This document shows positions 7,567 through 63,701 of a stretch of 64,000 bases of DNA, in pieces. Location of the stretch: IMG/VR virus record IMGVR_UViG_3300045988_119437, positions 72,768 to 136,767 of that record; one strand, written 5' to 3'. Positions within the stretch are counted from its first letter, which is position 1. Every line of letters begins with the position of its first letter. The position numbers were made by a program, and so were the translations under genes. The stretch is from a virus. The notes under the pieces were generated by a model. That model was not told the DNA's origin. It made no database searches and saw only the letters and a program-made list of their open reading frames with translations.

Positions 7567-8868
7567 ATGACTACTAACAATTCTATGACTGTAATAACCT
7601 CTAAGCCATTCGGCGCACTGAATGTGGACGTGTACCAGAATGATAAACACCAGTATTATATGACCCGTGAACAGATTGGGCGAGCACTGGAATGTAAAGA
7701 ACCTCGGAAGTACATTGCGAAGATTCATGAGCGTAATGCAGACCGTCTTGACCCGTTGAGCTCGGTCGTCAATTTGACGACTGAGGTCGGAAATTATACG
7801 CAAGAACGTCAAACATATATGTACAGTTTGCGTGGTGTTATGGAAATCTGTCGTTTGTCTCGTCAGCCGAAGGCGGATGCGTTTATGGATTTCTGCTGGG
7901 ACATTATGGAATCTCTGATGCGTGGCGATTCCGTTCTGGCTACTCCTCAGATGGATGCTGCACTGAGTAAGGAGTTCATTGATGTAAGACTTCACGCTCT
8001 GTTTGATAGCATGAAGAACCTTCAGAGTGAACTTGATTCCACTCGCAAGGAGCTCGGTGACCAGATTGAGGAAGCTCGTGCTACTAGCAACGAAGCACTG
8101 AATATAATCAGCAGCGTGTCTCAGTGTGTCCATCAGATTAAGGATAAGCAGATGGATAATTCGATTCGTGCTAAGAGCTATACTCCTCGCAATGTGTTTC
8201 AGGATGAAATGAGTGACTGGCGTAAAGATTTGTATAGCAAGATTGGTGTGATTGCAAATACCAAAGGCTATACGAATAAGGAAACGCTTCACAAGATATA
8301 TGAATATCTGAATCGTAATTATGGTTTCGTTTTGGAAGACGCTCGTGCGAAGTATGTTAAAAGAACGAATCGTAGTGGGAAAATCTCTACGATTGATATT
8401 ATCGAAGAGGACTCCACTTGGAAATCCGTTATGGGTGCTGTTGTCGCAGATATGTACGCGGCATCTATTGAACGTCTGCATCAGAATCAGAATGAACTTC
8501 GTCTGACTCCAAAGGCTGTCGAAGCTGTTTCTGAAGTAAACGTGAGCGACGCTCCCGTGGTTGAGGTGGAAGCCAAGGAAGTTGTTAATGAGAAGCCTAA
8601 GAAGCAGAGTGAGACGGCAAAGATTCTTTTCCCAATTATGATGCCTCTGGCGGAAAACCTTGGTGATAGGCCGCAATACAAGCACACTTATACCCTAATC
8701 TATGAGTGTATTGGTTATAAGAAAATGAATAATTTGTTTATTGCTTACGAGAAGGCTCATGGTAAAGCACCAAGTCCGAAAACAAAGGTGTTTATCGAAA
8801 ACGAAAAGAATCTCGCACTGTTTAAAAAGGCTGTAAAGCAGCTGATGAAAGAACGGGAGAACAAGTAA
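7567..8868 (+). CDS. putative phage antirepressor-like protein (Bro-N/ORF6N-like N-terminus)
   Basis: 433-aa ORF; N-terminal FGALNVDVYQNDKHQYYMTREQIGRAL resembles antirepressor N-domains; by-eye assignment. Confidence 0.4.
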   Translation: MTTNNSMTVITSKPFGALNVDVYQNDKHQYYMTREQIGRALECKEPRKYIAKIHERNADRLDPLSSVVNLTTEVGNYTQERQTYMYSLRGVMEICRLSRQPKADAFMDFCWDIMESLMRGDSVLATPQMDAALSKEFIDVRLHALFDSMKNLQSELDSTRKELGDQIEEARATSNEALNIISSVSQCVHQIKDKQMDNSIRAKSYTPRNVFQDEMSDWRKDLYSKIGVIANTKGYTNKETLHKIYEYLNRNYGFVLEDARAKYVKRTNRSGKISTIDIIEEDSTWKSVMGAVVADMYAASIERLHQNQNELRLTPKAVEAVSEVNVSDAPVVEVEAKEVVNEKPKKQSETAKILFPIMMPLAENLGDRPQYKHTYTLIYECIGYKKMNNLFIAYEKAHGKAPSPKTKVFIENEKNLALFKKAVKQLMKERENK

Positions 8869-9761: not shown

Positions 9762-9986
9762 ATGATGGTATATGGAAACATAACGTGTAATCGCTGTGGC
9801 ATTACATGGTATGGCCCTAAATGTGGAAAGCTCTATTGTGATAAATGTCGTAAGATAATAAGAAATGAGGCATCCATTCGATGTAAGAACAAAAAGAAAC
9901 ATAAACCAACATTTGTTGAGATTGTAAGAATGGCAGATGCTGAAGGATTATCTTACGGTAAGTATTGTTTGAAGTATGGAGTTTGA
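9762..9986 (+). CDS. zinc-ribbon small protein
   Basis: CNRCG...CGKLYCDKC cysteine pairs. Confidence 0.45.
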   Translation: MMVYGNITCNRCGITWYGPKCGKLYCDKCRKIIRNEASIRCKNKKKHKPTFVEIVRMADAEGLSYGKYCLKYGV

Positions 9987-10845
9987 GGTGAATGTGATGA
10001 GTGCGCTTGAAAACGAAAAGAAAATCGAAAATACTGTTGCTCTTGATTTTTCTGACTACGATTCTTCTAACAAAGAAAAACGTCAGAACGTAGTTAAAAA
10101 GAATTATAGCCTAACTCGTATGGAAGCAAATCATGGGTCAGTTCAGCCAATTAAAGACAAAGAGGATATCAAACGTATTTCAGAATATTTTTGGATTAAA
10201 CGTCAGTACCGCAACTGGTGTTTGTTTAATGTAGGATGTTGCACAGGATTCAGAGCAAGTGATTTGCTTCGTTTGAAGGTTTCTGATGTAGCAGCTACAG
10301 ATATGAATGGAAAGGTTGTGGTGAATTTCAACGCAAAACTTCGTGTTAAGGAAAAGAAAACAAATAAGTATCGCATTCTTAAAGTTCCGGTCCCGGCACT
10401 AAAGTGTATTCAAACTTATATCAATATTGATGGATTGTCTTATGACGATTGGCTCTTCCCGTCTCGGCAAGGCAGTTGGAAGAACTCCATGAGAACAAAC
10501 GGTGGAACAAGCGTGAGTAAATCTGGTGTGTTCCGTAAGTATGATGCGAATCCAAAAGAAATGGGCGATCCGCTTGATGTAGATTCTTTTGGTAGAATCA
10601 TGCGTCAAGTTGGTAAGGAGTTAAATCTTTCTGTACAGCTTGGTTCTCATAGTTGCCGCAAAACTTTCGGATATCAGTTTATTGAATCTCATCCAAATGA
10701 CGTAAAAGCTCTTGCGTGGTTGCAGCATAGTCTGAATCACAGTAGTCAGGCAATTACGCTTCGCTATATTGGTCTGGATGAAGAAGTGGATGATGAATAC
10801 TACTCTGGGATTGATTATGGCGTGGACTGTCATGAAGACTCTTGA
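9976..10845 (+). CDS. tyrosine recombinase (phage integrase family), internal copy
   Basis: GFRASDLLRLK (Arg box), HSCRKTF (His-x-x-Arg box), LRYIG (catalytic Tyr) motifs. Confidence 0.7.
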   Translation: MEFEVNVMSALENEKKIENTVALDFSDYDSSNKEKRQNVVKKNYSLTRMEANHGSVQPIKDKEDIKRISEYFWIKRQYRNWCLFNVGCCTGFRASDLLRLKVSDVAATDMNGKVVVNFNAKLRVKEKKTNKYRILKVPVPALKCIQTYINIDGLSYDDWLFPSRQGSWKNSMRTNGGTSVSKSGVFRKYDANPKEMGDPLDVDSFGRIMRQVGKELNLSVQLGSHSCRKTFGYQFIESHPNDVKALAWLQHSLNHSSQAITLRYIGLDEEVDDEYYSGIDYGVDCHEDS

Positions 10846-14758: not shown

Positions 14759-15058
14759 ATGAATTTACAAGGACTTGAAAATAAAAAATGGGACTTTAAT
14801 AAACAAGAGGAACTAGCTATCTCTTGGCTATTAAAACATGGCTTTGAGGTGAAATTGAAAAAACAGTATACATCAAAGGATATTTATACGGTAACAAAAG
14901 ATGGTATTTTAGATGAATTTATCTTTCCGAATAACCAGAAGAACATGAACGTTCGGGCTTTTATGGAAAGATATGAGAAAAATTTTGAAACAAAGAAAGA
15001 ACTCATAAAATTAAGAGCAGAGGCATCGGATAATGGTTTGATTAAAGAACGTAGTTGA
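14759..15058 (+). CDS. hypothetical protein
   Basis: ORF after 105-nt AT-rich intergenic region carrying promoter-like TTGCAT/CATAAT. Confidence 0.5.
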   Translation: MNLQGLENKKWDFNKQEELAISWLLKHGFEVKLKKQYTSKDIYTVTKDGILDEFIFPNNQKNMNVRAFMERYEKNFETKKELIKLRAEASDNGLIKERS

Positions 15059-15089
15059 TGTGATAAAAGTTAAGTTCTAGGAGGATTCT

Positions 15090-15305
15090 ATGAAATTCTA
15101 TGTAATTAAAACCACAAAAAATGGTATTGAGTACAAAAAATATAAATGTATAGATGGATGGACAAAAGAGAAAACGGCAAGTTGGCAATTTTCAAAACAA
15201 GGAGCGGAAAGGATCGCTAAAAGATTAAATGATTCTGTAAAAGGACACGAGCATGAAATTCATTACAATGTGTTAGCTGCTAAAAATGATTTGGATAACT
15301 TTTGA
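15090..15305 (+). CDS. hypothetical protein
   Basis: ORF with AGGAGG RBS. Confidence 0.5.
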   Translation: MKFYVIKTTKNGIEYKKYKCIDGWTKEKTASWQFSKQGAERIAKRLNDSVKGHEHEIHYNVLAAKNDLDNF

Positions 15306-15352
15306 GTGAAAAGGTATGTCTAATAAAAGCTGAGATTTAGGGAGACATAGTT

Positions 15353-15583
15353 ATGAGTGAATATAAATTAAAGCCGTGTCCTTTTTGTGGTGGAGAAGTT
15401 ACCGTTGCAGAGGGCAGTTATCGCCAAACACGATGGATGTATGTTACGAGAGGAAACAAAGAAAATAGGTGCAACTGCCATGTTTTCATGGAAAGCAAAA
15501 CTTACTACTTTGATTCCTCTGAAAAAGACAAGGAAAGAATCAAAGCCGACCTTATCGAAGCGTGGAATAAGCGAGTCGAATAA
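15353..15583 (+). CDS. Lar-family restriction alleviation-like protein
   Basis: N-terminal KLKPCPFCGG motif, 76 aa, typical of Lar-like proteins. Confidence 0.5.
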   Translation: MSEYKLKPCPFCGGEVTVAEGSYRQTRWMYVTRGNKENRCNCHVFMESKTYYFDSSEKDKERIKADLIEAWNKRVE

Positions 15584-15611
15584 AAACTAAGATTTAATGG
15601 AGGAAAATATT

Positions 15612-15815
15612 ATGAGCGAAACAAATCATGAAAAGAACAAACATGAAGTGACTCGACTTGACGCAATTAGAAAGATAGACATTATGGGGCTTGAAAAGTT
15701 TCTTGAGAACATTCAGAAGTATCCAGACCGTTATCCCAAGAATAAATTTGAATGGATTGTATGGTTACAGGAACCAGTTGAAGATAGAGTACATTTTGAT
15801 AATAAGGTGTTTTAA
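15612..15815 (+). CDS. hypothetical protein
   Basis: ATG 15612 after ATGGAGGAAAATATT; the earlier ATG lies inside the RBS. Confidence 0.45.
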   Translation: MSETNHEKNKHEVTRLDAIRKIDIMGLEKFLENIQKYPDRYPKNKFEWIVWLQEPVEDRVHFDNKVF

Positions 15816-15816
15816 A

Positions 15817-16152
15817 ATGATTTATACCGTAACAATGATTGACTCGTTTAAGAACGAGCAGAATGCGAAATTTAGTTCGCCAGTGTCAAATACCAAAGGC
15901 ATCTACTGGATGCCGGACGACAGTTGGATTGCTGGATTCTTTACAGATTTAGCAGAGGCTATTCGAGTTGTTAAGGAAAACGTGACTGACATCTTTGAAC
16001 ATTGTTACAACTACGCAGTCGTTGAAGGATACGAGGAAGGTCTGTATCCAAGACCAGAATTGACGAGGTGGTTTAAATATGATGCTGAGAGTGACACAGC
16101 ATTCGAGATTGAACCGCCGCTGCATAATAATGTGTGTGGATATGCGTTTTGA
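15817..16152 (+). CDS. hypothetical protein
   Basis: ATG after AAGGTG; track ORF started upstream inside previous gene. Confidence 0.45.
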   Translation: MIYTVTMIDSFKNEQNAKFSSPVSNTKGIYWMPDDSWIAGFFTDLAEAIRVVKENVTDIFEHCYNYAVVEGYEEGLYPRPELTRWFKYDAESDTAFEIEPPLHNNVCGYAF

Positions 16153-16169
16153 AGAAGGAGAATAAGACT

Positions 16170-16325
16170 ATGAGTAGTGTACTTATTGATCGGAACGCAG
16201 CTAAGAAGGTAGAATCTATCTTCGAGCATCCTGATAAGATCTATTCGGTGTATTTGAAGGCTGGCGGAGATGTCGTTTGGCTGCAAGGTGAAATTGAGCT
16301 GTATGAATTTTTGCGCAGCTTATAA
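16170..16325 (+). CDS. hypothetical small protein
   Basis: ATG after AAGGAGAATAAG RBS. Confidence 0.45.
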   Translation: MSSVLIDRNAAKKVESIFEHPDKIYSVYLKAGGDVVWLQGEIELYEFLRSL

Positions 16326-16346
16326 AACCAATATTTTTGAAGGGAA

Positions 16347-16973
16347 GTGATTTTCATTAACTCTAATTTGTTAATAAATTGTGAGCAAAGTGTTGCTATT
16401 GTGTGTATAATGTGCTTGCTGGCAGGGAATCTGGTATCGAAGATCAGCCCGGTAATTCAAAATCAGAGCAATTCGTACCTTTATAATAGTAGTCCTCCGG
16501 CAGTAAGTGTTGTGCAGCAAGAGGAAAAGGAACCAGAAGTCATCGTAAAAACTGTTATCGAAACGCGTGTGGTAAACTTCAGTCAGGGAAAGCGCGAACT
16601 CACTAATGATGAGCGTGCTCTTGCGGAGCAGATCGTTGCTTGTGAAGCAGGTGCTGATAGCCTAGAAGGTCAGATGGCTGTGGCTCAATGTCTTTATGAT
16701 TCTGCCGTACTTGATGGTCTAACCATCCAGCAGGTCTTTAAGAAGTATGGTTATAGTTCCTTATATAATAGGAAGGTGACGGCAGAGAACGAATTGGCTG
16801 TGTCTATGGTGTTTGATTACGGCGCTAAAATTTCAGACAAACCAATTCAATGGTTTGTGACCCCGGCGGCAGCTTCCGGCAGTTGGCACGAGCGCGGAGC
16901 AACGTTCGCTGGACAATTTGGCGCACATAGGTTCTATTACAACGCGGAACTGGTTGTGGATGATGCCGAGTGA
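16347..16973 (+). CDS. SleB-like cell-wall hydrolase domain protein with N-terminal membrane anchor
   Basis: ALAEQIVACEAGADSLEGQMAVAQCLYDS matches the SleB hydrolase core; hydrophobic N-terminus; start codon uncertain (GTG). Confidence 0.55.
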   Translation: MIFINSNLLINCEQSVAIVCIMCLLAGNLVSKISPVIQNQSNSYLYNSSPPAVSVVQQEEKEPEVIVKTVIETRVVNFSQGKRELTNDERALAEQIVACEAGADSLEGQMAVAQCLYDSAVLDGLTIQQVFKKYGYSSLYNRKVTAENELAVSMVFDYGAKISDKPIQWFVTPAAASGSWHERGATFAGQFGAHRFYYNAELVVDDAE

Positions 16974-17097
16974 ATGGCATCATCTAAAATTTTAAACTTT
17001 TACAACAACAAAAAGATGTATAATATATTGGCTAAAACAAAAAGATGTGTATAATATATCTTGAAAGTTGTCTAAATGAGTGGAGGGCGGTGTTTTA

Positions 17098-17424
17098 ATG
17101 CGTGAGAAAAAGGTTTTGGAAATTATACAGGTTGAAAACTTTTTGAAGTACATAAGAAAAAAGCGAGTGTGGGTCTGCTTTATTTGTAATGGTGTGGATG
17201 TTCACATGATCTGCAAGAAGATGAACGATATTGGTGTAGAGACACATGGGATTGTCAAAGGCATTGGATTTTTTGGAAACGAAAGTCATGTTGAGCTGCG
17301 GCAAGAATGCTACGAAGTAAGGAGGGTTGAGTTTAGGCCGGGCGATAAAGAGAAAGCGTATGAGATGATCTTCGATAACACCAGCGTGTTCGTATCAGAG
17401 AATCCAGAGTTGTACGGGCACTAA
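17098..17424 (+). CDS. hypothetical protein
   Basis: ATG after GAGTGGAGGGCGG; preceded by two tandem -10-like boxes (17003-17065). Confidence 0.5.
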   Translation: MREKKVLEIIQVENFLKYIRKKRVWVCFICNGVDVHMICKKMNDIGVETHGIVKGIGFFGNESHVELRQECYEVRRVEFRPGDKEKAYEMIFDNTSVFVSENPELYGH

Positions 17425-17443
17425 AAATATTTTCGAAAACCTA

Positions 17444-17472
17444 TTGACTTCTGTAAAGGTATCCTGTATAAT
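17444..17472 (+). promoter_or_regulatory. consensus sigma70-type promoter (TTGACT-17-TATAAT) carrying the GTATCCTGTATAATATAG motif
   Basis: TTGACT at 17444-17449, 17-nt spacer, TATAAT at 17467-17472; near-identical to the promoter at 42167. Confidence 0.6.
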
Positions 17473-17515
17473 ATAGCTATGGAACGGAGCTACACTATTA
17501 TAGAGGAGAAAGACT

Positions 17516-17935
17516 ATGGACAACAATATTGACCCAAAGGTCGGAGAGGTTTGGTTGGTTGATCTATCCAATGCGACAGGTCATCAGCAGCGCGGTATTC
17601 GACCGTTCGTTGTGACGAGTAACAATAAGCGCAACTTCTTCAGTCCCACAATCAAAGGGAATCCGTTGTCTTCCAGAACATACAAGCGTTCTCCGGTTCA
17701 TGTCCTGCTCTCAAAGGAAGATTGCGATTTCCTAGAGGTTGACAGTATCGTTCTCTGTGAAGAGACTGACACACTTAACAAAGGGCAGTTTATCAAAAAG
17801 CTTGGTGTCTTGTCTGAGCGTCATATGAATATGATCGCAATGGCCAGATGCAAGGATGAACCGTTTTTGATCTCGGCGTTCGTGAGCGGCGTACAACATA
17901 CTATGGAATTTCAGAATTTTGCCGCATTTGCTTGA
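17516..17935 (+). CDS. MazF/PemK-family toxin-like endoribonuclease (no cognate antitoxin seen)
   Basis: GEVWLVDLSNATGHQQRGIRPFVVTS matches the PemK/MazF N-terminal beta-strand motif; own promoter and GGAGGAG RBS. Confidence 0.6.
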   Translation: MDNNIDPKVGEVWLVDLSNATGHQQRGIRPFVVTSNNKRNFFSPTIKGNPLSSRTYKRSPVHVLLSKEDCDFLEVDSIVLCEETDTLNKGQFIKKLGVLSERHMNMIAMARCKDEPFLISAFVSGVQHTMEFQNFAAFA

Positions 17936-17988
17936 TTTTTTATAAGGGTTAATGGTACACTACATATAATAAGAAGGAGTGTGCCATT

Positions 17989-18915
17989 ATGCTTACTGAA
18001 GAAAAGATCAACGCTTTTGCTGAAAAGTATTCTGATAGAAGCGGCGAGTTTGTTATATCGACACTTAACCATGTTATGGACTACGAAGCGGAGTGCGGGT
18101 ATGAGTTATTCGACTTCACAAAAGATGATTTTGTAAAGATGTTTGCCAAATACAATTGGGTAAACTCAAGTCGTTCATTCAGAAATGTGAAATCGATAAT
18201 CACTGGTTATATCAAGAACGAAAATCGTACAAGCATGTATGATTTGGCTGAATTCTCAGAGAGCGATGTGAGTTCAGACAATATGTACGAGGACAAGTAT
18301 TTTGCATCGGTTGATGAGTTTGTTGGTTTCTTAAACAAGTATGAAGAAGCGTATCAGATTCGTATGAATGTGATTGCTGTTTTGTACTGGATCGGTCTTA
18401 CTTCTAGTGAGGTTTCTAATCTAACAATTAACGATGTAGACTTTGAATCTCGTACTGTCCTCGATAGGACTGATGTTGACGCAAGGTTGATGGATATCAT
18501 CAAGCAGTGTTATGAAATGAAACAGTATGATGCGCCCAATATGGGAGGATACAGAACATTTTATGTCATAAATGGTGATTACATTCTTCGTAAAACAGAG
18601 GATAGAACTGGTGTAGACAGCGACCCGAAGATGTCTGTAAATACAATCCATAGTTATTTTGTGAGGCTGAATGACATTCTCGAAAAAAGACATCATACAA
18701 AGATTTTAGATCGAAGACATCTGACCAGAAATGGTGAGTATGTGAAGGTCTACGATTACTGTAAGAGTAATTCAGAGTTCAACCTTGCGGAGCTTAGTTT
18801 CGGAAATGGTAAAAAACCTCTTGCAGACATTATTGGAAGAAAGTGTAGCAAGGTAGCTTACATTAGTTTCCGGCAGGGATACAAGGGCTGGGTCGAATAC
18901 TTCCACAAAAATTAA
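17989..18915 (+). CDS. hypothetical protein (308 aa)
   Basis: ORF behind TATAAT box at 17967 and AAGGAG RBS; weak integrase-like segment LYWIGLTSSEV. Confidence 0.55.
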   Translation: MLTEEKINAFAEKYSDRSGEFVISTLNHVMDYEAECGYELFDFTKDDFVKMFAKYNWVNSSRSFRNVKSIITGYIKNENRTSMYDLAEFSESDVSSDNMYEDKYFASVDEFVGFLNKYEEAYQIRMNVIAVLYWIGLTSSEVSNLTINDVDFESRTVLDRTDVDARLMDIIKQCYEMKQYDAPNMGGYRTFYVINGDYILRKTEDRTGVDSDPKMSVNTIHSYFVRLNDILEKRHHTKILDRRHLTRNGEYVKVYDYCKSNSEFNLAELSFGNGKKPLADIIGRKCSKVAYISFRQGYKGWVEYFHKN

Positions 18916-18920
18916 AAACA

Positions 18921-18944
18921 GGGGGCTTCGGCCCCTTGATTTTA
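18921..18944 (+). terminator. rho-independent terminator
   Basis: GGGGC-TTCG-GCCCC hairpin followed by TTGATTTTAAC. Confidence 0.6.
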
Positions 18945-18952
18945 ACATCATA

Positions 18953-18972
18953 ACTATATGACACAGGATACT
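18953..18972 (+). promoter_or_regulatory. conserved motif copy (AACTATATGACACAGGATAC)
   Basis: Reverse-orientation copy of GTATCCTGTRTWATATAG, about 80 nt upstream of gene 19050. Confidence 0.45.
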
Positions 18973-19049
18973 AAACTAAAATAGACATTTTATGAAGAAT
19001 TGGAAATAAATAAATAGCGATAATACGTTGATAAAAAGGAGAGAAAACG

Positions 19050-20276
19050 ATGAGAACTTTGCTTCTTTTCCGTGGAGCACCAGGATGCGGGAAGTCCACC
19101 TATATTAAAGAGCATGATCTGGAAAAGTATACGCTTAGTGCCGATACGATTCGCCTTATGTGTCAGGGTGGTCAGGAAACCCCGGCTGGCACAATGGAAA
19201 TCTCTCCCCAGAACGATGATGTTGTCTGGGATATGCTCTTTAAACTGTTGGAGGTTCGGATGTCTCACGGTGAATTTACCGTGATTGATGCAACGAACTC
19301 TAAAACTGTTGAAATCAATCGCTATAAGAATCTTGCAAAGCAGTACAGATACAGAATGTACATCATCGACATGACTGATTTGCCGATTGATGAGTGTAAA
19401 CGGCGTAATGCGCTTCGTGCTCCTCTGAAGCGAGTTCCAGATGCTGCTATTGATAAGATGTATGCGCGATTTGCTACACAGAAGATTCCGTCTGGTGTGA
19501 CTGTACTTTCGTCAGATATAAATGTCCTTGAGAAATTGAACTATGTTCCGCAGGACTTTAGCAACTGGAACAAAATTCATATCATCGGTGATGTACATGG
19601 ATGTTACAGTTGCTTGAAAGAGTACCTTGGTGACCTGAAGGATGATGAACTGTACATTTTTGTTGGTGATTATCTGGATCGCGGTATTGAGAATGTAGAG
19701 ATGTTCAAGTTCCTTTGTGATGTTGTAGACAATAATCGGAAGAATGTAATTCTCCTTGAAGGAAATCACGAACGGTGGCTGAACAAGTGGGGCCATGATG
19801 AACCGGTTCAGAGCGAGGAGTTCGCAAACTACACTCGTCCGCAGCTTTTCAAAGCAGGGATTGACCATAATACGGCTCGTAAGGTTTATTCGAGAGTAGG
19901 ACAGTGCTCCTATTTTGATTACGACGAGAAAAGATACTTCGTTAGCCATGGTGGTTTGAGTTATTTGCCTGAATTTCTACCATTCGTGTCTACTGACCAG
20001 ATGGTAAAGGGTGTTGGTCGCTATCCTGATATGCTAACCGTGGCTGAGTCTTGGGAAAAATCGATGCCGGATAGCTACATTCAGATATTCGGTCATCGAA
20101 ATGTGCAGGATGTTCCTATTGATATGGGGCATCGGTGCTACAACCTCGAAGGAAAAATCGAGTTTGGTGGATATCTCCGTTGCGTGGAACTTGAACACGG
20201 TCAGTCAATCAAATGTGTAGAAACAAAGAATGATGTGTTCCGAAAAGAGGAGTCAAAGACTGAAACTACCGTTTAA
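19050..20276 (+). CDS. polynucleotide kinase-phosphatase (Pnkp-like: P-loop kinase + calcineurin-type phosphoesterase)
   Basis: N-terminal FRGAPGCGKST Walker A; C-terminal GDVHGC, GDYLDRG, GNHE metallophosphoesterase motifs. Confidence 0.7.
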   Translation: MRTLLLFRGAPGCGKSTYIKEHDLEKYTLSADTIRLMCQGGQETPAGTMEISPQNDDVVWDMLFKLLEVRMSHGEFTVIDATNSKTVEINRYKNLAKQYRYRMYIIDMTDLPIDECKRRNALRAPLKRVPDAAIDKMYARFATQKIPSGVTVLSSDINVLEKLNYVPQDFSNWNKIHIIGDVHGCYSCLKEYLGDLKDDELYIFVGDYLDRGIENVEMFKFLCDVVDNNRKNVILLEGNHERWLNKWGHDEPVQSEEFANYTRPQLFKAGIDHNTARKVYSRVGQCSYFDYDEKRYFVSHGGLSYLPEFLPFVSTDQMVKGVGRYPDMLTVAESWEKSMPDSYIQIFGHRNVQDVPIDMGHRCYNLEGKIEFGGYLRCVELEHGQSIKCVETKNDVFRKEESKTETTV

Positions 20277-21260
20277 ATGAAAACTGAGTTCGATAACGCA
20301 GAACTTGTCAGTAAGATGCGTCAAAGCAAATATGTGTTTGAGAAGCGATTCGGAGATATTTCTTCTTTCAACTTCTCTCGTGAAGCATTTTATAAGAAGC
20401 ACTGGGATGAGGTTTCTACCAAAGCAAGGGGATTGTTCATTAACACAAAGACGAATAAGATTGTAGCTCGAAGCTATGATAAGTTCTTTGCGGTCGATGA
20501 GCGGAATGAAACGAGAATTGGAAACCTACAGAACACTTTGAAGTTCCCGGTGACTGCATATCTGAAGGAAAACGGATTTCTTGGCATTGTCTCGTATGAT
20601 GCAGAACAGGATGGTCTGTTCATTGCAAGTAAATCCACTCCTGAAGGGCCTTTTGCAGATATGTTCCGAAAGATTCTCATGGATACGACTTCTGATGAAG
20701 ACCGTAAGAATCTGAAGGAAGTTGCAAAAGAGAATGGTTCCATCATTTTTGAGGTGATTGATCCTGTAAATGATGCTCATATCATCGAATACAAGAAACC
20801 GCACATTGTTTTGCTGGATATTGTTGCGAATGATATGAACTTCAGTGTGATGGATTACGATGATCTGAAGCGTGCTGCTGAAAAGTGTCATTTGCAGATT
20901 AAGGAGAAGGTTAAAATCTTTGAGAGCTGGAGTGAATTCTATCCTTGGTACGAGGGAGTCATGAACGAGAACTATCTGCATCATGGCTTTGAACATATTG
21001 AAGGGTTTGTCCTTCTGGATAGCACGAACTTTATGTTCAAGCTGAAGCTTCCTTACTACAAACACTGGAAGTTTTTGCGTAGTGTTATGCAGAGCGTTCA
21101 AAAGCGTGGCTATTATGAAAATACCGCAAAGTTGTTTACTGCTGAGGATAACCTGTTCTATGGTTGGATGCGTGAGCAACGAGAGAAAGACCAGGAATCT
21201 TTTTGCAAGAAGGGTATTATTCAGTTACGGAATGAATTCTATGAGAATCGGCACGAATAA
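20277..21260 (+). CDS. ligase-like nucleotidyltransferase (putative RNA ligase partner of Pnkp)
   Basis: Start abuts the Pnkp stop (TAAATG); candidate motifs I KENG, IV EGFVLLD, V FKLKL. Confidence 0.45.
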   Translation: MKTEFDNAELVSKMRQSKYVFEKRFGDISSFNFSREAFYKKHWDEVSTKARGLFINTKTNKIVARSYDKFFAVDERNETRIGNLQNTLKFPVTAYLKENGFLGIVSYDAEQDGLFIASKSTPEGPFADMFRKILMDTTSDEDRKNLKEVAKENGSIIFEVIDPVNDAHIIEYKKPHIVLLDIVANDMNFSVMDYDDLKRAAEKCHLQIKEKVKIFESWSEFYPWYEGVMNENYLHHGFEHIEGFVLLDSTNFMFKLKLPYYKHWKFLRSVMQSVQKRGYYENTAKLFTAEDNLFYGWMREQREKDQESFCKKGIIQLRNEFYENRHE

Positions 21261-23396: not shown

Positions 23397-23416
23397 AGCT
23401 ATATAATACAGGATAC
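23397..23416 (+). promoter_or_regulatory. conserved motif copy (AGCTATATAATACAGGATAC) immediately upstream of the MTase RBS
   Basis: Near-exact reverse complement of the 17455 and 42182 motif; contains a TATAAT box. Confidence 0.5.
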
Positions 23417-27004: not shown

Positions 27005-27024
27005 AGCTAAGTAATACAGGATAC
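27005..27024 (+). promoter_or_regulatory. conserved motif copy (TAGCTAAGTAATACAGGATAC)
   Basis: Reverse-orientation copy directly upstream of the RBS of gene 27039. Confidence 0.45.
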
Positions 27025-41800: not shown

Positions 41801-42170
41801 AAACCGTGGCATTATCCGAAAGATTGAGACTAGTTTTATTCTGGTTGATTTTGACCAATGGGGAACGATCTTCATTCCGCATTACTTTGGTGGGAATAAC
41901 ATCTGGGCAACGCTTGAACTTGCTTATGCTTTAAGTTGTCATAAACTACAGGGCAGTGAGGCTCCGTATGTGATTGTTGGTATGGACAACTCTGCATACC
42001 TGATGCTGACGAGAGAATGGCTCTATACGGCCATTACTCGTGCCAAGAAGTATTGTGTGATTTGCGCCGAAACTCATGCTCTTGATCGGGCTGTAAAGAC
42101 TTCGAGGGTGCCATACAAGCGGACGTTCTTGAAGGAATTTTTACGGAAAGAATTTTCAGAAAAGCATTGA
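38877..42170 (+). CDS. RecD2-like SF1 DNA helicase with HhH N-domain; Walker A interrupted by an intein
   Basis: GTG start; GIGWKKADALA HhH; ILTGYGG|intein|TGKSTVV rebuilds GxxGxGKST; C-terminal helicase motifs. Confidence 0.75.
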   Translation: MADKKFNENMIRCYIRIKRVFYPKDGREVEPGGFATFSAEVVKVKQGNPVMSRYSDLRLKGNVPSLDMNKTYSFCGEYVHHEKFGDQYKIIYMNEFQEITDPEEQKSFLHYILTDHQFEILYEAFENPYEIIKNGDIKSLCTVSGITEGRAQKIIDTYENNIDNSDAYTKLIEYGLTPSAIEKLVRQYHGADTLVRKIEENPYVLIDDVYGIGWKKADALALNMGLKHNSQFRIEAYVMHFLAGRAEEGNSIISANQTINSCIKELDLNEGDQEVIKRALFHLHDARETLWWSDDRQEFALTRVWNLEDSIAKEIKRLADVPVEPIGRNMDAAINEAEDELGIEYTEEQRDAIKKVCSSNVCILTGYGGCLDAEMEFFNGIQWKKIKDYVKGDKVLQYNENGTTTLVEPEKYVKFKCEYLYHMKNKSGSINQLLSAEHNVVYLTSKNNLAKIPMWELYQRNVKRKSGFNGHFITTFNYDGPGIDLSDADIRLMCAVICDGSFLKDHKSAWCRVNVKKERKKLRMRRLLLESGRYFDEHQWNPKDLEYSNFVFYAPRKEKRFTSYWYSCNHHQLEVICDEILNWDGHVKEGRRKDFSTLIKETADFVQFAFSSCGYRSVVHESNIERHGRMVTEYNVHIVQHSNGKVSLMTKGSKSDIDIVRSSDGYKYCFTVPSHMFLIRYNGRICVTGNTGKSTVVAGVLKVLHGKSFAQTALSGRAAARMQEITGQDGKTIHRLLGYDIENGGFIHNKDNPLEEDIIILDETSMVGAQLFYDLIQAIETGKRFIMIGDDGQLESIGMCNIFKDMLASKVVPVARLTKIHRQAAKSAIITESIKVRNATQLVPYGWAGSEIRGELRDLELDIYKDASESFNHIINQYRTLYNKVGNDSAKIQIVLPQKLRGSICTYEVNNAIQEIVNPSRGQAEAKVTIYGDGKDRVYTLREGDQVIINKNNYELHTYNLKTKKKEEKCPVFNGNRGIIRKIETSFILVDFDQWGTIFIPHYFGGNNIWATLELAYALSCHKLQGSEAPYVIVGMDNSAYLMLTREWLYTAITRAKKYCVICAETHALDRAVKTSRVPYKRTFLKEFLRKEFSEKH
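39984..40946 (+). mobile_element. intein (321 aa) with LAGLIDADG-type homing endonuclease core
   Basis: Starts with Cys after GYGG, block B SAEHN, LMCAVICDGSF LAGLIDADG-like motif, ends ...VTGN followed by T. Confidence 0.65.
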
Positions 42171-42195
42171 CAATTATATTCGTATCCTGTATAAT
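42167..42195 (+). promoter_or_regulatory. perfect-consensus sigma70 promoter (TTGACA-17-TATAAT) carrying the GTATCCTGTATAATATAG motif
   Basis: TTGACA 42167-42172 overlaps the helicase stop; TATAAT 42190-42195. Confidence 0.6.
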
Positions 42196-42201
42196 ATAGT
42201 T

Positions 42202-42304
42202 ATAAAAAGTCTCCATCCCGTAGGCTTAAAATTCTCTCTTTAGATGCATAACACAGGATACGAGAAAGAGAAGGCTTGCTCGTAACGACAAGCCTTTCTT
42301 TATT
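42202..42304 (+). ncRNA. candidate ~100-nt small RNA between consensus promoter and terminator
   Basis: Lies between the promoter at 42167 and the terminator hairpin at 42271; no credible ORF or RBS; contains an ACAGGATAC motif copy. Confidence 0.3.
42271..42304 (+). terminator. rho-independent terminator
   Basis: AAGGCTTG-loop-CAAGCCTT stem followed by TCTTTATT. Confidence 0.6.
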
Positions 42305-42330
42305 AGCTATAACTATATAACACAGGATAC
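42305..42330 (+). promoter_or_regulatory. conserved motif copy (AGCTATAACTATATAACACAGGATAC) upstream of the ligase RBS
   Basis: Reverse-orientation motif copy; an additional core copy sits at 42253-42261. Confidence 0.45.
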
Positions 42331-62534: not shown

Positions 62535-63701
62535 ATGATAAGACGTAAAGATAATAATGGCAAAGTTTTAAAAGACGGCGAGAGCCAGAGAAAGGATGGG
62601 AGATACCAATATAGATGGACAAACAAACTTGGAAAACGCTCAATAATATACGCCACTTCACTTAAAGAATTGAGAGAAAAAGAAGCTGAAATCCAAGAAA
62701 AACTTAATTTGGGTATAACGTCTACTTCAAAAATCACAGTGTACCAATTAGCAAAAAGACATCTCGAAGAAACAAAACTTACTATTAGGCCAAGCAGCTA
62801 TAAAACAAAATCGCAGAATTTGAAAATCTTTCAGAATCACCTAATTGGGGAAATGAATGCAACTGATATTTTAGTGCGCGATGTAAAACAATTTGCACGA
62901 GAATTGGATAACGAAGGATATTGTTATACAACAATCAGAGATGTCATGTCTTTAGCTAGACCGGCATTTCAAGAAATGTTTGATGAGAATATAATTCCTA
63001 GAAATCCATTCGTTTTTAAATTAAATACAGTTGTCAAATGTGACTCAAAAGAAAAAGAAATATTAACAGAAGAGCAGTATCAAAATCTGATCAAGTTCAT
63101 GAAATCTAGTCGAGTATATAAAAGGCATGTTGGCATGGTGATGCTTTTGCACGAGACCGGACTTCGAGCAGGAGAATTATGCGGGCTAACAAAAAAGTCA
63201 TTTGATTTTGATAACAACACTGTTACTATATCTCATCAGATGGTGTACGATGGAAAGAGCGGCGGGCTGTATTTAGCACCTACAAAAACAGAAAGTGGGA
63301 TAAGGACTATCCCATTATCTAAAGACGCCATCATTGCTTTTGAAGAAGCGATAAAACAACGTCCGATTGTAAAAGCAGAGAGAATAATAGATGGGCAAGC
63401 CGACTTCTTGTTCATAGCAAAAACTGGAAGGCCCTATACGAATAAAAACCTTGTTAGAATTTTTGAAGGACTAATCAAAGCCTATAATAGTTGCCATGAT
63501 GAACCATTGCCTGAAGTCACTGCCCATAGTATGCGCCACGAATATTGTACACGGCTTGTCAAAGCCAAGATGGATGTTAAATCGGTTCAATACCTCATGG
63601 GACATTCGTCGCCCGATATAACCTTGAAAGTGTATACTCATATCTTAAAAGAAGAGACCGAAGCAGAGGCAATCAAACAGTTTAATAGGATTGTTTCCTA
63701 A
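62535..63701 (+). CDS. int: tyrosine integrase (Tn916/phage Int family) with N-terminal arm-binding domain
   Basis: N-terminal RKDGRYQYRWT; catalytic LRAGELCGL, HSMRHEY, LKVYTH. Confidence 0.8.
   Translation: MIRRKDNNGKVLKDGESQRKDGRYQYRWTNKLGKRSIIYATSLKELREKEAEIQEKLNLGITSTSKITVYQLAKRHLEETKLTIRPSSYKTKSQNLKIFQNHLIGEMNATDILVRDVKQFARELDNEGYCYTTIRDVMSLARPAFQEMFDENIIPRNPFVFKLNTVVKCDSKEKEILTEEQYQNLIKFMKSSRVYKRHVGMVMLLHETGLRAGELCGLTKKSFDFDNNTVTISHQMVYDGKSGGLYLAPTKTESGIRTIPLSKDAIIAFEEAIKQRPIVKAERIIDGQADFLFIAKTGRPYTNKNLVRIFEGLIKAYNSCHDEPLPEVTAHSMRHEYCTRLVKAKMDVKSVQYLMGHSSPDITLKVYTHILKEETEAEAIKQFNRIVS

Follow-up and report, generated by a model that had tools for sequence, protein, structure and literature searches.

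A phage-borne mazF gene conserved in a two-gene unit with a homologue of the SPbeta master-repressor gene

Why should a phage carry a gene for a MazF-like toxin when no antitoxin gene can be recognised beside it? This question is raised by a 64,000-nucleotide stretch of the IMG/VR record IMGVR_UViG_3300045988_119437 (positions 72,768 to 136,767; the whole stretch is called the window below and covers about half of the phage genome). A preliminary description of this DNA had presented the mazF-like gene at 17516-17935 as an orphan, that is, as a gene for a solitary endoribonuclease that might serve host shut-off or superinfection exclusion. Comparison with related loci (numbered L001, L002 and so on) did not bear out the solitary state: mazF is the first cistron of a two-gene module with a gene for a MrpR/YopR/SroF-like repressor, and this module is found in ten lineages. 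By analogy with the role of host MazF in phage phi3T (PMC10769878; 10.1101/2023.04.27.537455), the context of the locus points to lysis-lysogeny control more than to host shut-off or exclusion. The features on which the argument depends are the following, in window coordinates.

17444 to 17472, plus strand: promoter P_mazF, made of TTGACT (17444-17449), a 17-nucleotide spacer and TATAAT (17467-17472)
17459 to 17476, plus strand: operator-like 18-bp element GTATCCTGTATAATATAG, overlapping the -10 box of P_mazF
17504 to 17508, plus strand: Shine-Dalgarno sequence AGGAG of mazF, read from the sequence
17516 to 17935, plus strand: mazF-like gene, 139 amino acids, with a MazF core (residues about 8-114) and a conserved two-helix C-terminal tail (residues 116-139)
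17950 to 17989, plus strand: hairpin of the mazF-mrpR spacer, with a 12-bp stem (17950-17961 paired with 17978-17989) and a 16-nucleotide loop
17961 to 17966, plus strand: TACATA motif where the 5' (anti-Shine-Dalgarno) arm meets the loop
17989 to 18915, plus strand: mrpR/yopR/sroF-like gene, 308 amino acids, homologue of a repressor with the tyrosine-recombinase fold
18920 to 18936, plus strand: intrinsic terminator closing the mazF-mrpR unit, with equivalents after the mrpR-like gene in L001, L002 and L005
18954 to 18971, minus strand: inverted copy of the 18-bp element just past the terminator, which brackets the cassette and marks a recombination boundary

The linkage of the two genes was evident both in the window and across the relatives. 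The interval between mazF and the mrpR-like gene contains no terminator, the sole one being that after the second gene, and the same layout is seen in L001, L002 and L005. The downstream gene does encode 308 amino acids as first described, but the promoter of its own that had been assigned to it was not convincing, as the TATAAT at 17965-17970 is accompanied by no usable -35 box. An internal promoter for the mrpR-like gene was also sought by inspection in the relatives, and a convincing pair of -35 and -10 boxes was seen only in L005 and not in the window, L001 or L002. As neither a terminator nor a convincing promoter lies between them, the downstream gene is taken to share a conserved operon with mazF. 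Gene order (mazF first, the mrpR-like gene second) is the same in the window group, L001, L002, L005/L096, L092, L106, L108, L112 and L116, and in L100/L110 with a gene of 417 amino acids inserted between the two. Within the window group, 78 of the 80 close relatives have the unit intact, and in L106 the two genes overlap by 17 nucleotides. Over these ten linked lineages the identity of MazF falls to about 33% and all other neighbours vary. Moreover, every MazF that bears the C-terminal tail and has a readable downstream context (ten lineages) is linked to an MrpR-like gene.

Two kinds of insertion were seen between the genes. The 417-amino acid insert of the most divergent lineage (L100, 4489-5742; L110, 1546-2604; MazF about 33-36% identical) carries an IDGQHR motif and looks DGQHR/DndB-like by eye. 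The other is an open reading frame (ORF) of 68 amino acids at 4521-4727 of L096, between mazF and mrpR, which is not present in its near-twin L005 and appears to be mobile-element debris.

The second protein of the unit is diverged, and its assignment comes from profiles of several lineages. The window protein itself matched the Pfam domain MrpR_N_CB at E 2.8e-4 (21.9 bits, below the curated cut-off of 27), and its relatives gave matches to MrpR_N_CB or MrpR_C_cat (PF22822/PF22823). Alignment of a four-lineage profile with SPbeta YopR by hhalign gave E 2.3e-5 and a probability of 75.8% over 247 columns, and a six-lineage hidden Markov model detected YopR at E 1.3e-11, with no match to YopP or to the two integrase-family proteins of the window. 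Against the sequences of the PDB, the family profile gave only a weak match, to XerA (E 0.14). By these sequence comparisons, the downstream gene is homologous to MrpR/YopR/SroF, the master repressor of SPbeta.

The first protein is firmly placed in its family. As had been noted, it contains the PemK/MazF hallmark GEVWLVDL...GHQQRGIRPFVVTS. It matched the Pfam family PF02452 (PemK_toxin) at E 4.5e-19 over residues 8-108 (69.1 bits, cut-off 23.1) and PHROG 1936 'MazF-like growth inhibitor' at E 1.3e-21, while the NCBIfam equivalog model for E. coli MazF gave 20.2 bits, below its cut-off of 120; therefore it belongs to the PemK/MazF family without being orthologous to E. coli MazF. With a profile built from 22 family members, the S. 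aureus and B. subtilis MazF structures were retrieved from the PDB at E 8e-20 to 3e-16. One AlphaFold2 model reached a mean predicted local distance difference test score (pLDDT) of 86.9 and a predicted template modelling (TM) score of 0.78, the other four of the five models having pLDDT 61-69. A Foldseek search of the PDB returned 124 matches with E up to 0.001, the best of which were again the S. aureus and B. subtilis MazFs (target-normalised TM-score 0.82-0.88), and the predicted fold is the SH3-like beta-barrel with a C-terminal helix that defines the PemK/MazF family. Arg29, in the GIRP motif, corresponds in the alignment to the catalytic Arg25 of B. subtilis MazF and is invariant among the homologues compared. 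Similarly, Ser52 aligns with Thr48 and is Ser or Thr in 22 of 22 close and 11 of 11 distant homologues (33-65% identity), the catalytic roles of Arg25 and Thr48 being those summarised in PMC8634880, citing Simanshu 2013. From alignment and model, the product looks like a catalytically competent endoribonuclease of the MazF family. The ratio of nonsynonymous to synonymous substitution rates (dN/dS) is 0.023 for mazF over about 76 related loci, compared with 0.127 for the upstream ORF and 0.092 for the downstream gene, and mazF is under strong purifying selection. None of the PADLOC defence-system models matched MazF, the upstream ORF or the MrpR-like protein.

The unit would be expressed from P_mazF. 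This promoter had been called a perfect consensus; the TTGACT-17-TATAAT arrangement is indeed strong and the top sigma-70-type site between 14000 and 22000, but one of its 12 positions departs from the consensus (11 of 12 match). Taken together, promoter-like sites show no excess in this region (19 found, 21.9 expected). Among about 80 relatives, the -35 and -10 boxes and GTATCCTGTATAAT are unchanged while the 5' half of the spacer drifts, which is a sign of selection on P_mazF, and the divergent L001, L002 and L005 have strong promoters at the equivalent position. The strong ribosome-binding site first described is also present, its AGGAG standing 7 nucleotides 5' of the ATG in an unstructured 5' untranslated region.

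The 18-bp element over the -10 box is over-represented: the window holds six copies against 0.06 expected, and seven of the 9-mer core against 0.26 expected, all of them intergenic. The copies of the element GTATCCTGTATWATATAG are given below.

17459 to 17476, plus strand: copy in P_mazF
18954 to 18971, minus strand: copy after the terminator of the unit
23399 to 23416, minus strand: full copy
27007 to 27024, minus strand: full copy
42182 to 42199, plus strand: full copy
42253 to 42261, minus strand: core copy
42313 to 42330, minus strand: full copy

The two copies in plus orientation overlap the -10 boxes of consensus promoters that are nearly identical (17424-17480 and 42147-42203), and three of the four full copies in minus orientation lie 5-10 nucleotides 5' of a Shine-Dalgarno sequence. 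In L001, L002 and L005, whose MrpR-like proteins are only 24-29% identical to that of the window, a lineage-specific element in P_mazF recurs directly after the mrpR terminator, with a different sequence in each lineage. In SPbeta, the element SPBRE is the operator bound by MrpR in early promoters, including P_yopM, the promoter of the repressor (sro) operon (PMC10516654). By analogy, the 18-bp element is probably a SPBRE-like operator of the MrpR-like protein. In BLAST comparisons of the window with 80 IMG/VR relatives (L006-L085), breakpoints of similarity recur at about 18971-18975 and at about 16320-16570; the block between them, from a cell-wall-hydrolase-like gene through the upstream ORF of 108 amino acids, mazF and mrpR, is kept, and to the right of this block the DNA has been exchanged or has gained insertions of about 2.5 kb. 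As the breakpoint on that side coincides with the inverted 18-bp copy, the element may also act as a hotspot of recombination.

The regulatory layout extends to the spacer between the genes. The loop of the predicted hairpin, with the edge of the stem, contains the Shine-Dalgarno sequence of mrpR (mostly in the loop), and the A of the ATG is the last base of the 3' arm; the folding energy of the 53-nucleotide spacer is -16.2 kcal/mol. Within the stem, a core of 10 bp is unchanged in 85 relatives, and a search for covariation among close relatives was uninformative, since this core does not vary. Hairpins that sequester the Shine-Dalgarno sequence are predicted at the equivalent position in L001, L002, L005 and L092, where the mrpR-like Shine-Dalgarno sequence has a pairing probability of 0.77-1.0, the highest or second highest of any gene in its locus. 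The spacers of five lineages are otherwise unalignable, and TACATA is the sole 6-mer common to them, 26-40 nucleotides before the start codon; it does not occur in the spacers of more distant lineages.

What, then, restrains the toxin? No antitoxin for the phage MazF is recognisable in the window by sequence searches, and the earlier statement that the gene lacks an antitoxin gene stands for conventional antitoxins, both adjacent and antisense. Searches across the window by phmmer with MazE, YosL, AimX, YopM/N and AimR-like proteins gave nothing significant, the YosL query and a MazE query giving nothing at E below 2. Between 15000 and 21500, Rfam gave no match at E up to 1; no tandem-repeat RNA antitoxin was found near mazF, and in these scans and the promoter scan the locus showed the hallmarks of neither a type III (ToxIN-like) nor a type I toxin-antitoxin system. 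A single promoter-like site on the minus strand was found near mazF (17457-17429, 9 of 12 consensus positions), in the upstream intergenic region and directed away from the gene. A conventional antitoxin overlapping on the other strand had been raised as the observation that would speak against an orphan toxin, and none was seen: the antisense ORFs within mazF are unconserved, being intact in 40-55 of 75 relatives, and have no Pfam match.

The remaining neighbour is the gene upstream.

17098 to 17424, plus strand: ORF of 108 amino acids, a real gene, lineage-restricted and probably not an antitoxin

It is separated from mazF by 91 nucleotides and a strong promoter and, as first described, does not resemble MazE or PemI. 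It had also been named as a possible antitoxin, together with the suggestion that neighbouring proteins be compared by structure. A fold search of this protein gave no antitoxin-like match, and the ORF is not conserved across lineages. Its homologues are confined to this phage group, a profile search adding only three divergent ones; they are detectable 5' of mazF in L001 and L002, and unrelated ORFs stand at this position in L092, L005/L096, L100 and L108. In the close relative L048, the ORF has been deleted except for the last 56 or so nucleotides, and mazF is intact. Further 5', two tandem copies of ACAAAAAGATGT(G)TATAATATAT lie at 17006-17029 and 17035-17060, each with a P_mazF-like TGTATAATATA box, and a TTGGCT-16-TATAAT promoter, which agrees with the consensus in 10 of 12 bases, is formed by one of the two.

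IMG/VR holds 148 related loci. Most come from human-gut data sets and lie on contigs of 125-140 kb; the contigs of relatives reach 349 kb, which fits an integrated prophage. The IMG isolate genomes 650377940 and 2843291059 also contain relatives. Every long ORF of the window is on the plus strand, the GC content is about 40%, and near-identical DNA was found in none of the known phages. The window contains a tyrosine integrase gene (62535-63701) and a replication module collinear with SPbeta YorI-YorJ-YorK-YorL at 24-35% identity, the relatives have YorF and AAA_24 genes, and among characterised DNA polymerases the one from a [Clostridium] innocuum phage is nearest (47% identity). Because of these features, the source is regarded as a temperate gut phage of about 125-140 kb with a Bacillota host, distantly related to SPbeta. 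The SPbeta proteins AimR, YopM, YopN, YopO, YopP and YopQ, used as phmmer queries, had no significant match in the window. The early region upstream of the locus includes a Lar-type restriction-alleviation gene (15353-15583), a gene for an antirepressor-like protein of 433 amino acids with a Bro-N domain (7567-8868) and a second, short gene of the tyrosine-recombinase family (9976-10845, 289 amino acids), which recalls YopP of the SPbeta sro operon without significant similarity to it.

Studies of Bacillus phages offer a frame for these observations. Two studies of 2023-24 showed that activity of the host MazF is needed for lysogeny of phi3T; AimX and YosL inhibit MazF, and the sro-operon protein phi3T_93 binds MazE and so frees MazF (PMC10769878; 10.1101/2023.04.27.537455). 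SPbeta YopM has the same MazE-binding role (PMC10516654). How MazF promotes lysogeny was left as 'by an uncharacterized mechanism' (PMC10769878), and according to the summary in a later preprint most phage mRNAs are degraded by MazF and the sro operon is spared (10.1101/2025.11.27.690993). We tentatively propose, as a reading that falls somewhat short of being probable, that the MazF of the window is the phage's own ribonuclease (RNase) arm of a lysis-lysogeny switch and has the function that host MazF has in phi3T. On infection, host RNA polymerase would fire P_mazF and produce the mazF-mrpR transcript and a burst of MazF. MazF would then cut RNA and damp lytic or host expression, as host MazF may do for phi3T. 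Finally, the accumulating MrpR-like repressor would bind the element wherever a promoter bears it, P_mazF included, and shut mazF off, so that a lysogen would need little or no antitoxin. The identity and conservation of the two genes, their linkage and their regulatory layout, on which this proposal builds, are direct observations.

Several points weigh against this proposal. Three positions that are highly conserved in MazFs of the UAC(A) type are changed in the phage protein (P15 to N19, E20 to Q24 and R85 to Q91), and with these substrate-side changes its cleavage sequence should not be assumed. In the operons of the five lineages taken together, TACAT occurs nine times where 10.4 would be expected, and after correction none of the 5-mers shows significant depletion; thus there is no sign that the operon mRNA is spared by MazF. 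Neither an arbitrium receptor nor homologues of AimX, YosL or YopM/N were found in the window, which is about half of the genome. The 66 pattern matches in the GTDB representative genomes include no true relative, and none of these genomes carries the family. The 18-bp element is unchanged in relatives whose MrpR-like protein is down to 74% identical, and its assignment as an operator is made purely by analogy with SPBRE. This assignment, the RNase activity and the effect on lysogeny are the steps that we infer.

A more speculative extension gives the spacer a part in the switch. UACAU, which lies within the TACATA motif, is the cleavage site of the MazFs of B. subtilis, S. aureus and C. difficile (PMC8634880). 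The operon of the window has TACAT three times, which is a typical number. In the long mazF-mrpR transcript, the hairpin would close the ribosome-binding region of the repressor gene. MazF would cut the one conserved UACAUA, where the anti-Shine-Dalgarno arm meets the loop, and the cut would part the occluding arm from the Shine-Dalgarno sequence and the AUG and sever mazF from the message. The nuclease activity would thereby turn synthesis of the repressor on and its own synthesis off, driving lysogeny. We consider this cleavage-dependent switch to be hardly probable; if true, it would supply the missing mechanistic link by which MazF promotes lysogeny in SPbeta-type phages and would be a case of a toxin domesticated as a translational activator.

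Of the rival explanations, the one that survives best takes the unit as a toxin-first pair of type II. The MrpR-like protein would be the antitoxin, which binds MazF (perhaps via the tail) and represses the operon, and loss of the repressor by induction or prophage curing would free MazF for host shut-off or post-segregational killing. HigBA, HicAB and MqsRA are established examples of toxin-first operons whose antitoxin binds DNA, and the conservation of the pair in ten lineages, the overlap of the genes in L106 and the linkage of all tail-bearing MazFs with readable downstream context to an MrpR-like gene would be expected from it. However, close relatives share 93-100% identity in MazF and as little as 74% in the MrpR-like protein, a divergence that is unexpected for a tight binding partner, and in L100/L110 the inserted gene separates the two. 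Moreover, the hairpin occludes the initiation region of the repressor gene and that of mazF is open and strong; therefore a joint transcript would yield toxin in excess of antitoxin. SPbeta MrpR, in addition, represses without a MazF partner (PMC10516654). We regard this explanation as unlikely.

In another explanation, MazF is an early host-takeover nuclease directed against host mRNA or the RNA of a competing phage, and its position beside the repressor gene is incidental. The consensus sigma-A-type promoter and the strong Shine-Dalgarno sequence would suit such a role, PHROG classes such proteins as 'host takeover', and solitary mazF genes occur in unrelated contexts elsewhere (phages Perkons and PMBT24). 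An enzyme for RNA repair (Pnkp plus Rnl1-type ligase), encoded shortly 3' of the unit in many relatives, would also suit it. On the other hand, incidental placement leaves unexplained why the linkage persisted through ten lineages while MazF diverged to about 33% identity and the other neighbours changed, and it does not explain the shared regulatory bracket. We judge this role to be improbable.

The RNA-repair genes deserve a description of their own. In the window, 19050-20276 encodes a polynucleotide kinase-phosphatase (AAA_33 and Metallophos domains) and 20277-21260 an RNA ligase of the T4 Rnl1 type, separated by the stop codon at 20274-20276, and in relatives the two are fused into a protein of 737-754 amino acids. 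Enzymes of the Pnkp-ligase type heal and seal 2',3'-cyclic-phosphate and 5'-OH ends, which are the products of MazF cleavage. The repair gene stands directly 3' of the mazF-mrpR operon in many relatives but not in all. In L089, a Cas12f1-like_TNB (TnpB-type) gene lies 3' of it (15034-16323), apparently as mobile-element debris.

The C-terminal tail suggests still another explanation, namely that MazF is self-inhibited, its two helices folding onto the RNA-binding groove as a fused, antitoxin-like lid that some trigger would release. The tail (two helices by AlphaFold2, pLDDT about 75-88) is common to all mrpR-linked MazFs and is kept across homologues of 33-65% identity, in which P116 is nearly invariant and F132 invariant; by the Foldseek search of the PDB it has no counterpart in solved MazF structures, and when 1.84 billion representative proteins were searched, matches that extended through it made up no more than a small fraction of the best ones. 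Insertion of a helix into the groove of the MazF dimer is, moreover, how MazE, AimX and YosL inhibit MazF (PMC10769878). Nevertheless, the tail shows by inspection no sequence similarity to the GYMEM helix of MazE/YosL, and only one of the five AlphaFold2 models was confident. Self-inhibition appears very improbable to us.

Among the closer non-phage matches is a tail-less MazF of 123 amino acids (protein P0137, in L113 and L114), which stands alone in an ordinary bacterial chromosomal context next to genes for asparagine synthase, a prenyltransferase and UvdE, with no antitoxin gene called. From this context, solitary MazFs may not be restricted to phages.

Finally, the view that the upstream ORF is a non-canonical antitoxin in the usual antitoxin-then-toxin order is scarcely credible: it is a real gene on the same strand that adjoins mazF, evolves faster than MazF and has homologues at the same position in L001 and L002, but a strong promoter stands between the two, no homologue is detectable in L092, L005/L096, L100 or L108, and L048 has lost it while retaining mazF.

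The presence of a mazF-like gene in this phage is therefore not new in itself, as phage MazF-like genes without an antitoxin are already catalogued in PHROG 1936. By contrast, we found no description, in the literature searched or among characterised phages, of a conserved operon of a tail-bearing MazF and an MrpR-type repressor with a hairpin and TACATA in the spacer, and none of the characterised phages of the INPHARED collection has the MazF-MrpR module. A widespread family of gut phages hard-wires mazF to a homologue of the SPbeta master-repressor gene. If the proposed role in lysogeny is true, the involvement of MazF in lysogeny would be an ancient and general one instead of a peculiarity of B. 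subtilis, and many 'orphan' phage toxins now labelled as host takeover may be parts of lysis-lysogeny switches. The system would also be compact, with two genes, one promoter and one hairpin, and could be dissected without host genetics. The family offers an example from nature of a MazF that is under very strong purifying selection and has no recognisable antitoxin, a case relevant to how transcriptional wiring alone can keep toxins in check.

Among the closest known systems are the phage 'MazF-like growth inhibitors' (PHROG 1936 and 35650), which are likewise PemK/MazF-domain proteins without an annotated antitoxin. Examples are ORF37 of Psychrobacillus phage Perkons, the 'mRNA interferase' of Enterocloster phage PMBT24 and proteins of the Lachnospiraceae NatCom phages, which are at most 40% identical to the MazF of the window. 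Their contexts are unlike that of the window: the Perkons gene is among early genes (its ORF41 is not MrpR-like) and that of PMBT24 is inside the tail module. The Bacillota MazF/EndoA proteins (B. subtilis 4MDX, 4ME7 and 1NE8; S. aureus 4MZM and 4OF1) have the same fold at 29-35% identity, and the GxRP motif with the catalytic Arg and the Thr/Ser at the second catalytic position are shared by the phage protein. They differ from it in the residues changed at P15 (to N), E20 (to Q) and R85 (to Q), and in lacking the extra two-helix C-terminal tail of about 25 amino acids. Moreover, in Bacillota MazEF a mazE gene accompanies mazF, whereas here the adjacent, co-transcribed MazE-type antitoxin (AbrB/SpoVT or ribbon-helix-helix) that defines this type II system was not found, and mazF is phage-borne and predicted to be co-transcribed with a repressor gene.

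The HigBA, HicAB and MqsRA systems also have the nuclease gene first and the DNA-binding gene second under a promoter with an operator, and autoregulation is probable here as well. The second protein of our unit differs from theirs in having 308 amino acids and the tyrosine-recombinase fold and in being a homologue of a master repressor, and the translation signals here favour the toxin over its partner. In the cI-rexA-rexB operon of phage lambda, the repressor is co-transcribed with an exclusion system that affects the host. There too, an immunity repressor shares its transcript with a potentially cell-damaging effector, but the proteins, their order and the chemistry of the effector differ, and the likeness is one of analogy only.

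A further parallel is the switch of phi3T and SPbeta, with AimX, YosL, phi3T_93/YopM and the sro operon (yopMNOPQR) ending in MrpR/SroF. Collinearity of the window with SPbeta is limited to the replication module, and neither homologues of the modulators nor arbitrium genes were found in the half of the genome that the window covers. MazF is functionally tied to the repressor operon of an SPbeta-type phage in the Bacillus system, and a similar tie is proposed here. In SPbeta, as in the window, the repressor gene is the last of its operon and is followed by a terminator and a repeated element, and the promoter of the operon also bears a repeated, operator-type element (PMC10516654). The two differ in where MazF is encoded: in Bacillus it is chromosomal and the phage encodes modulators only (the MazE mimics AimX/YosL and a MazE binder), whereas here the phage encodes MazF itself.

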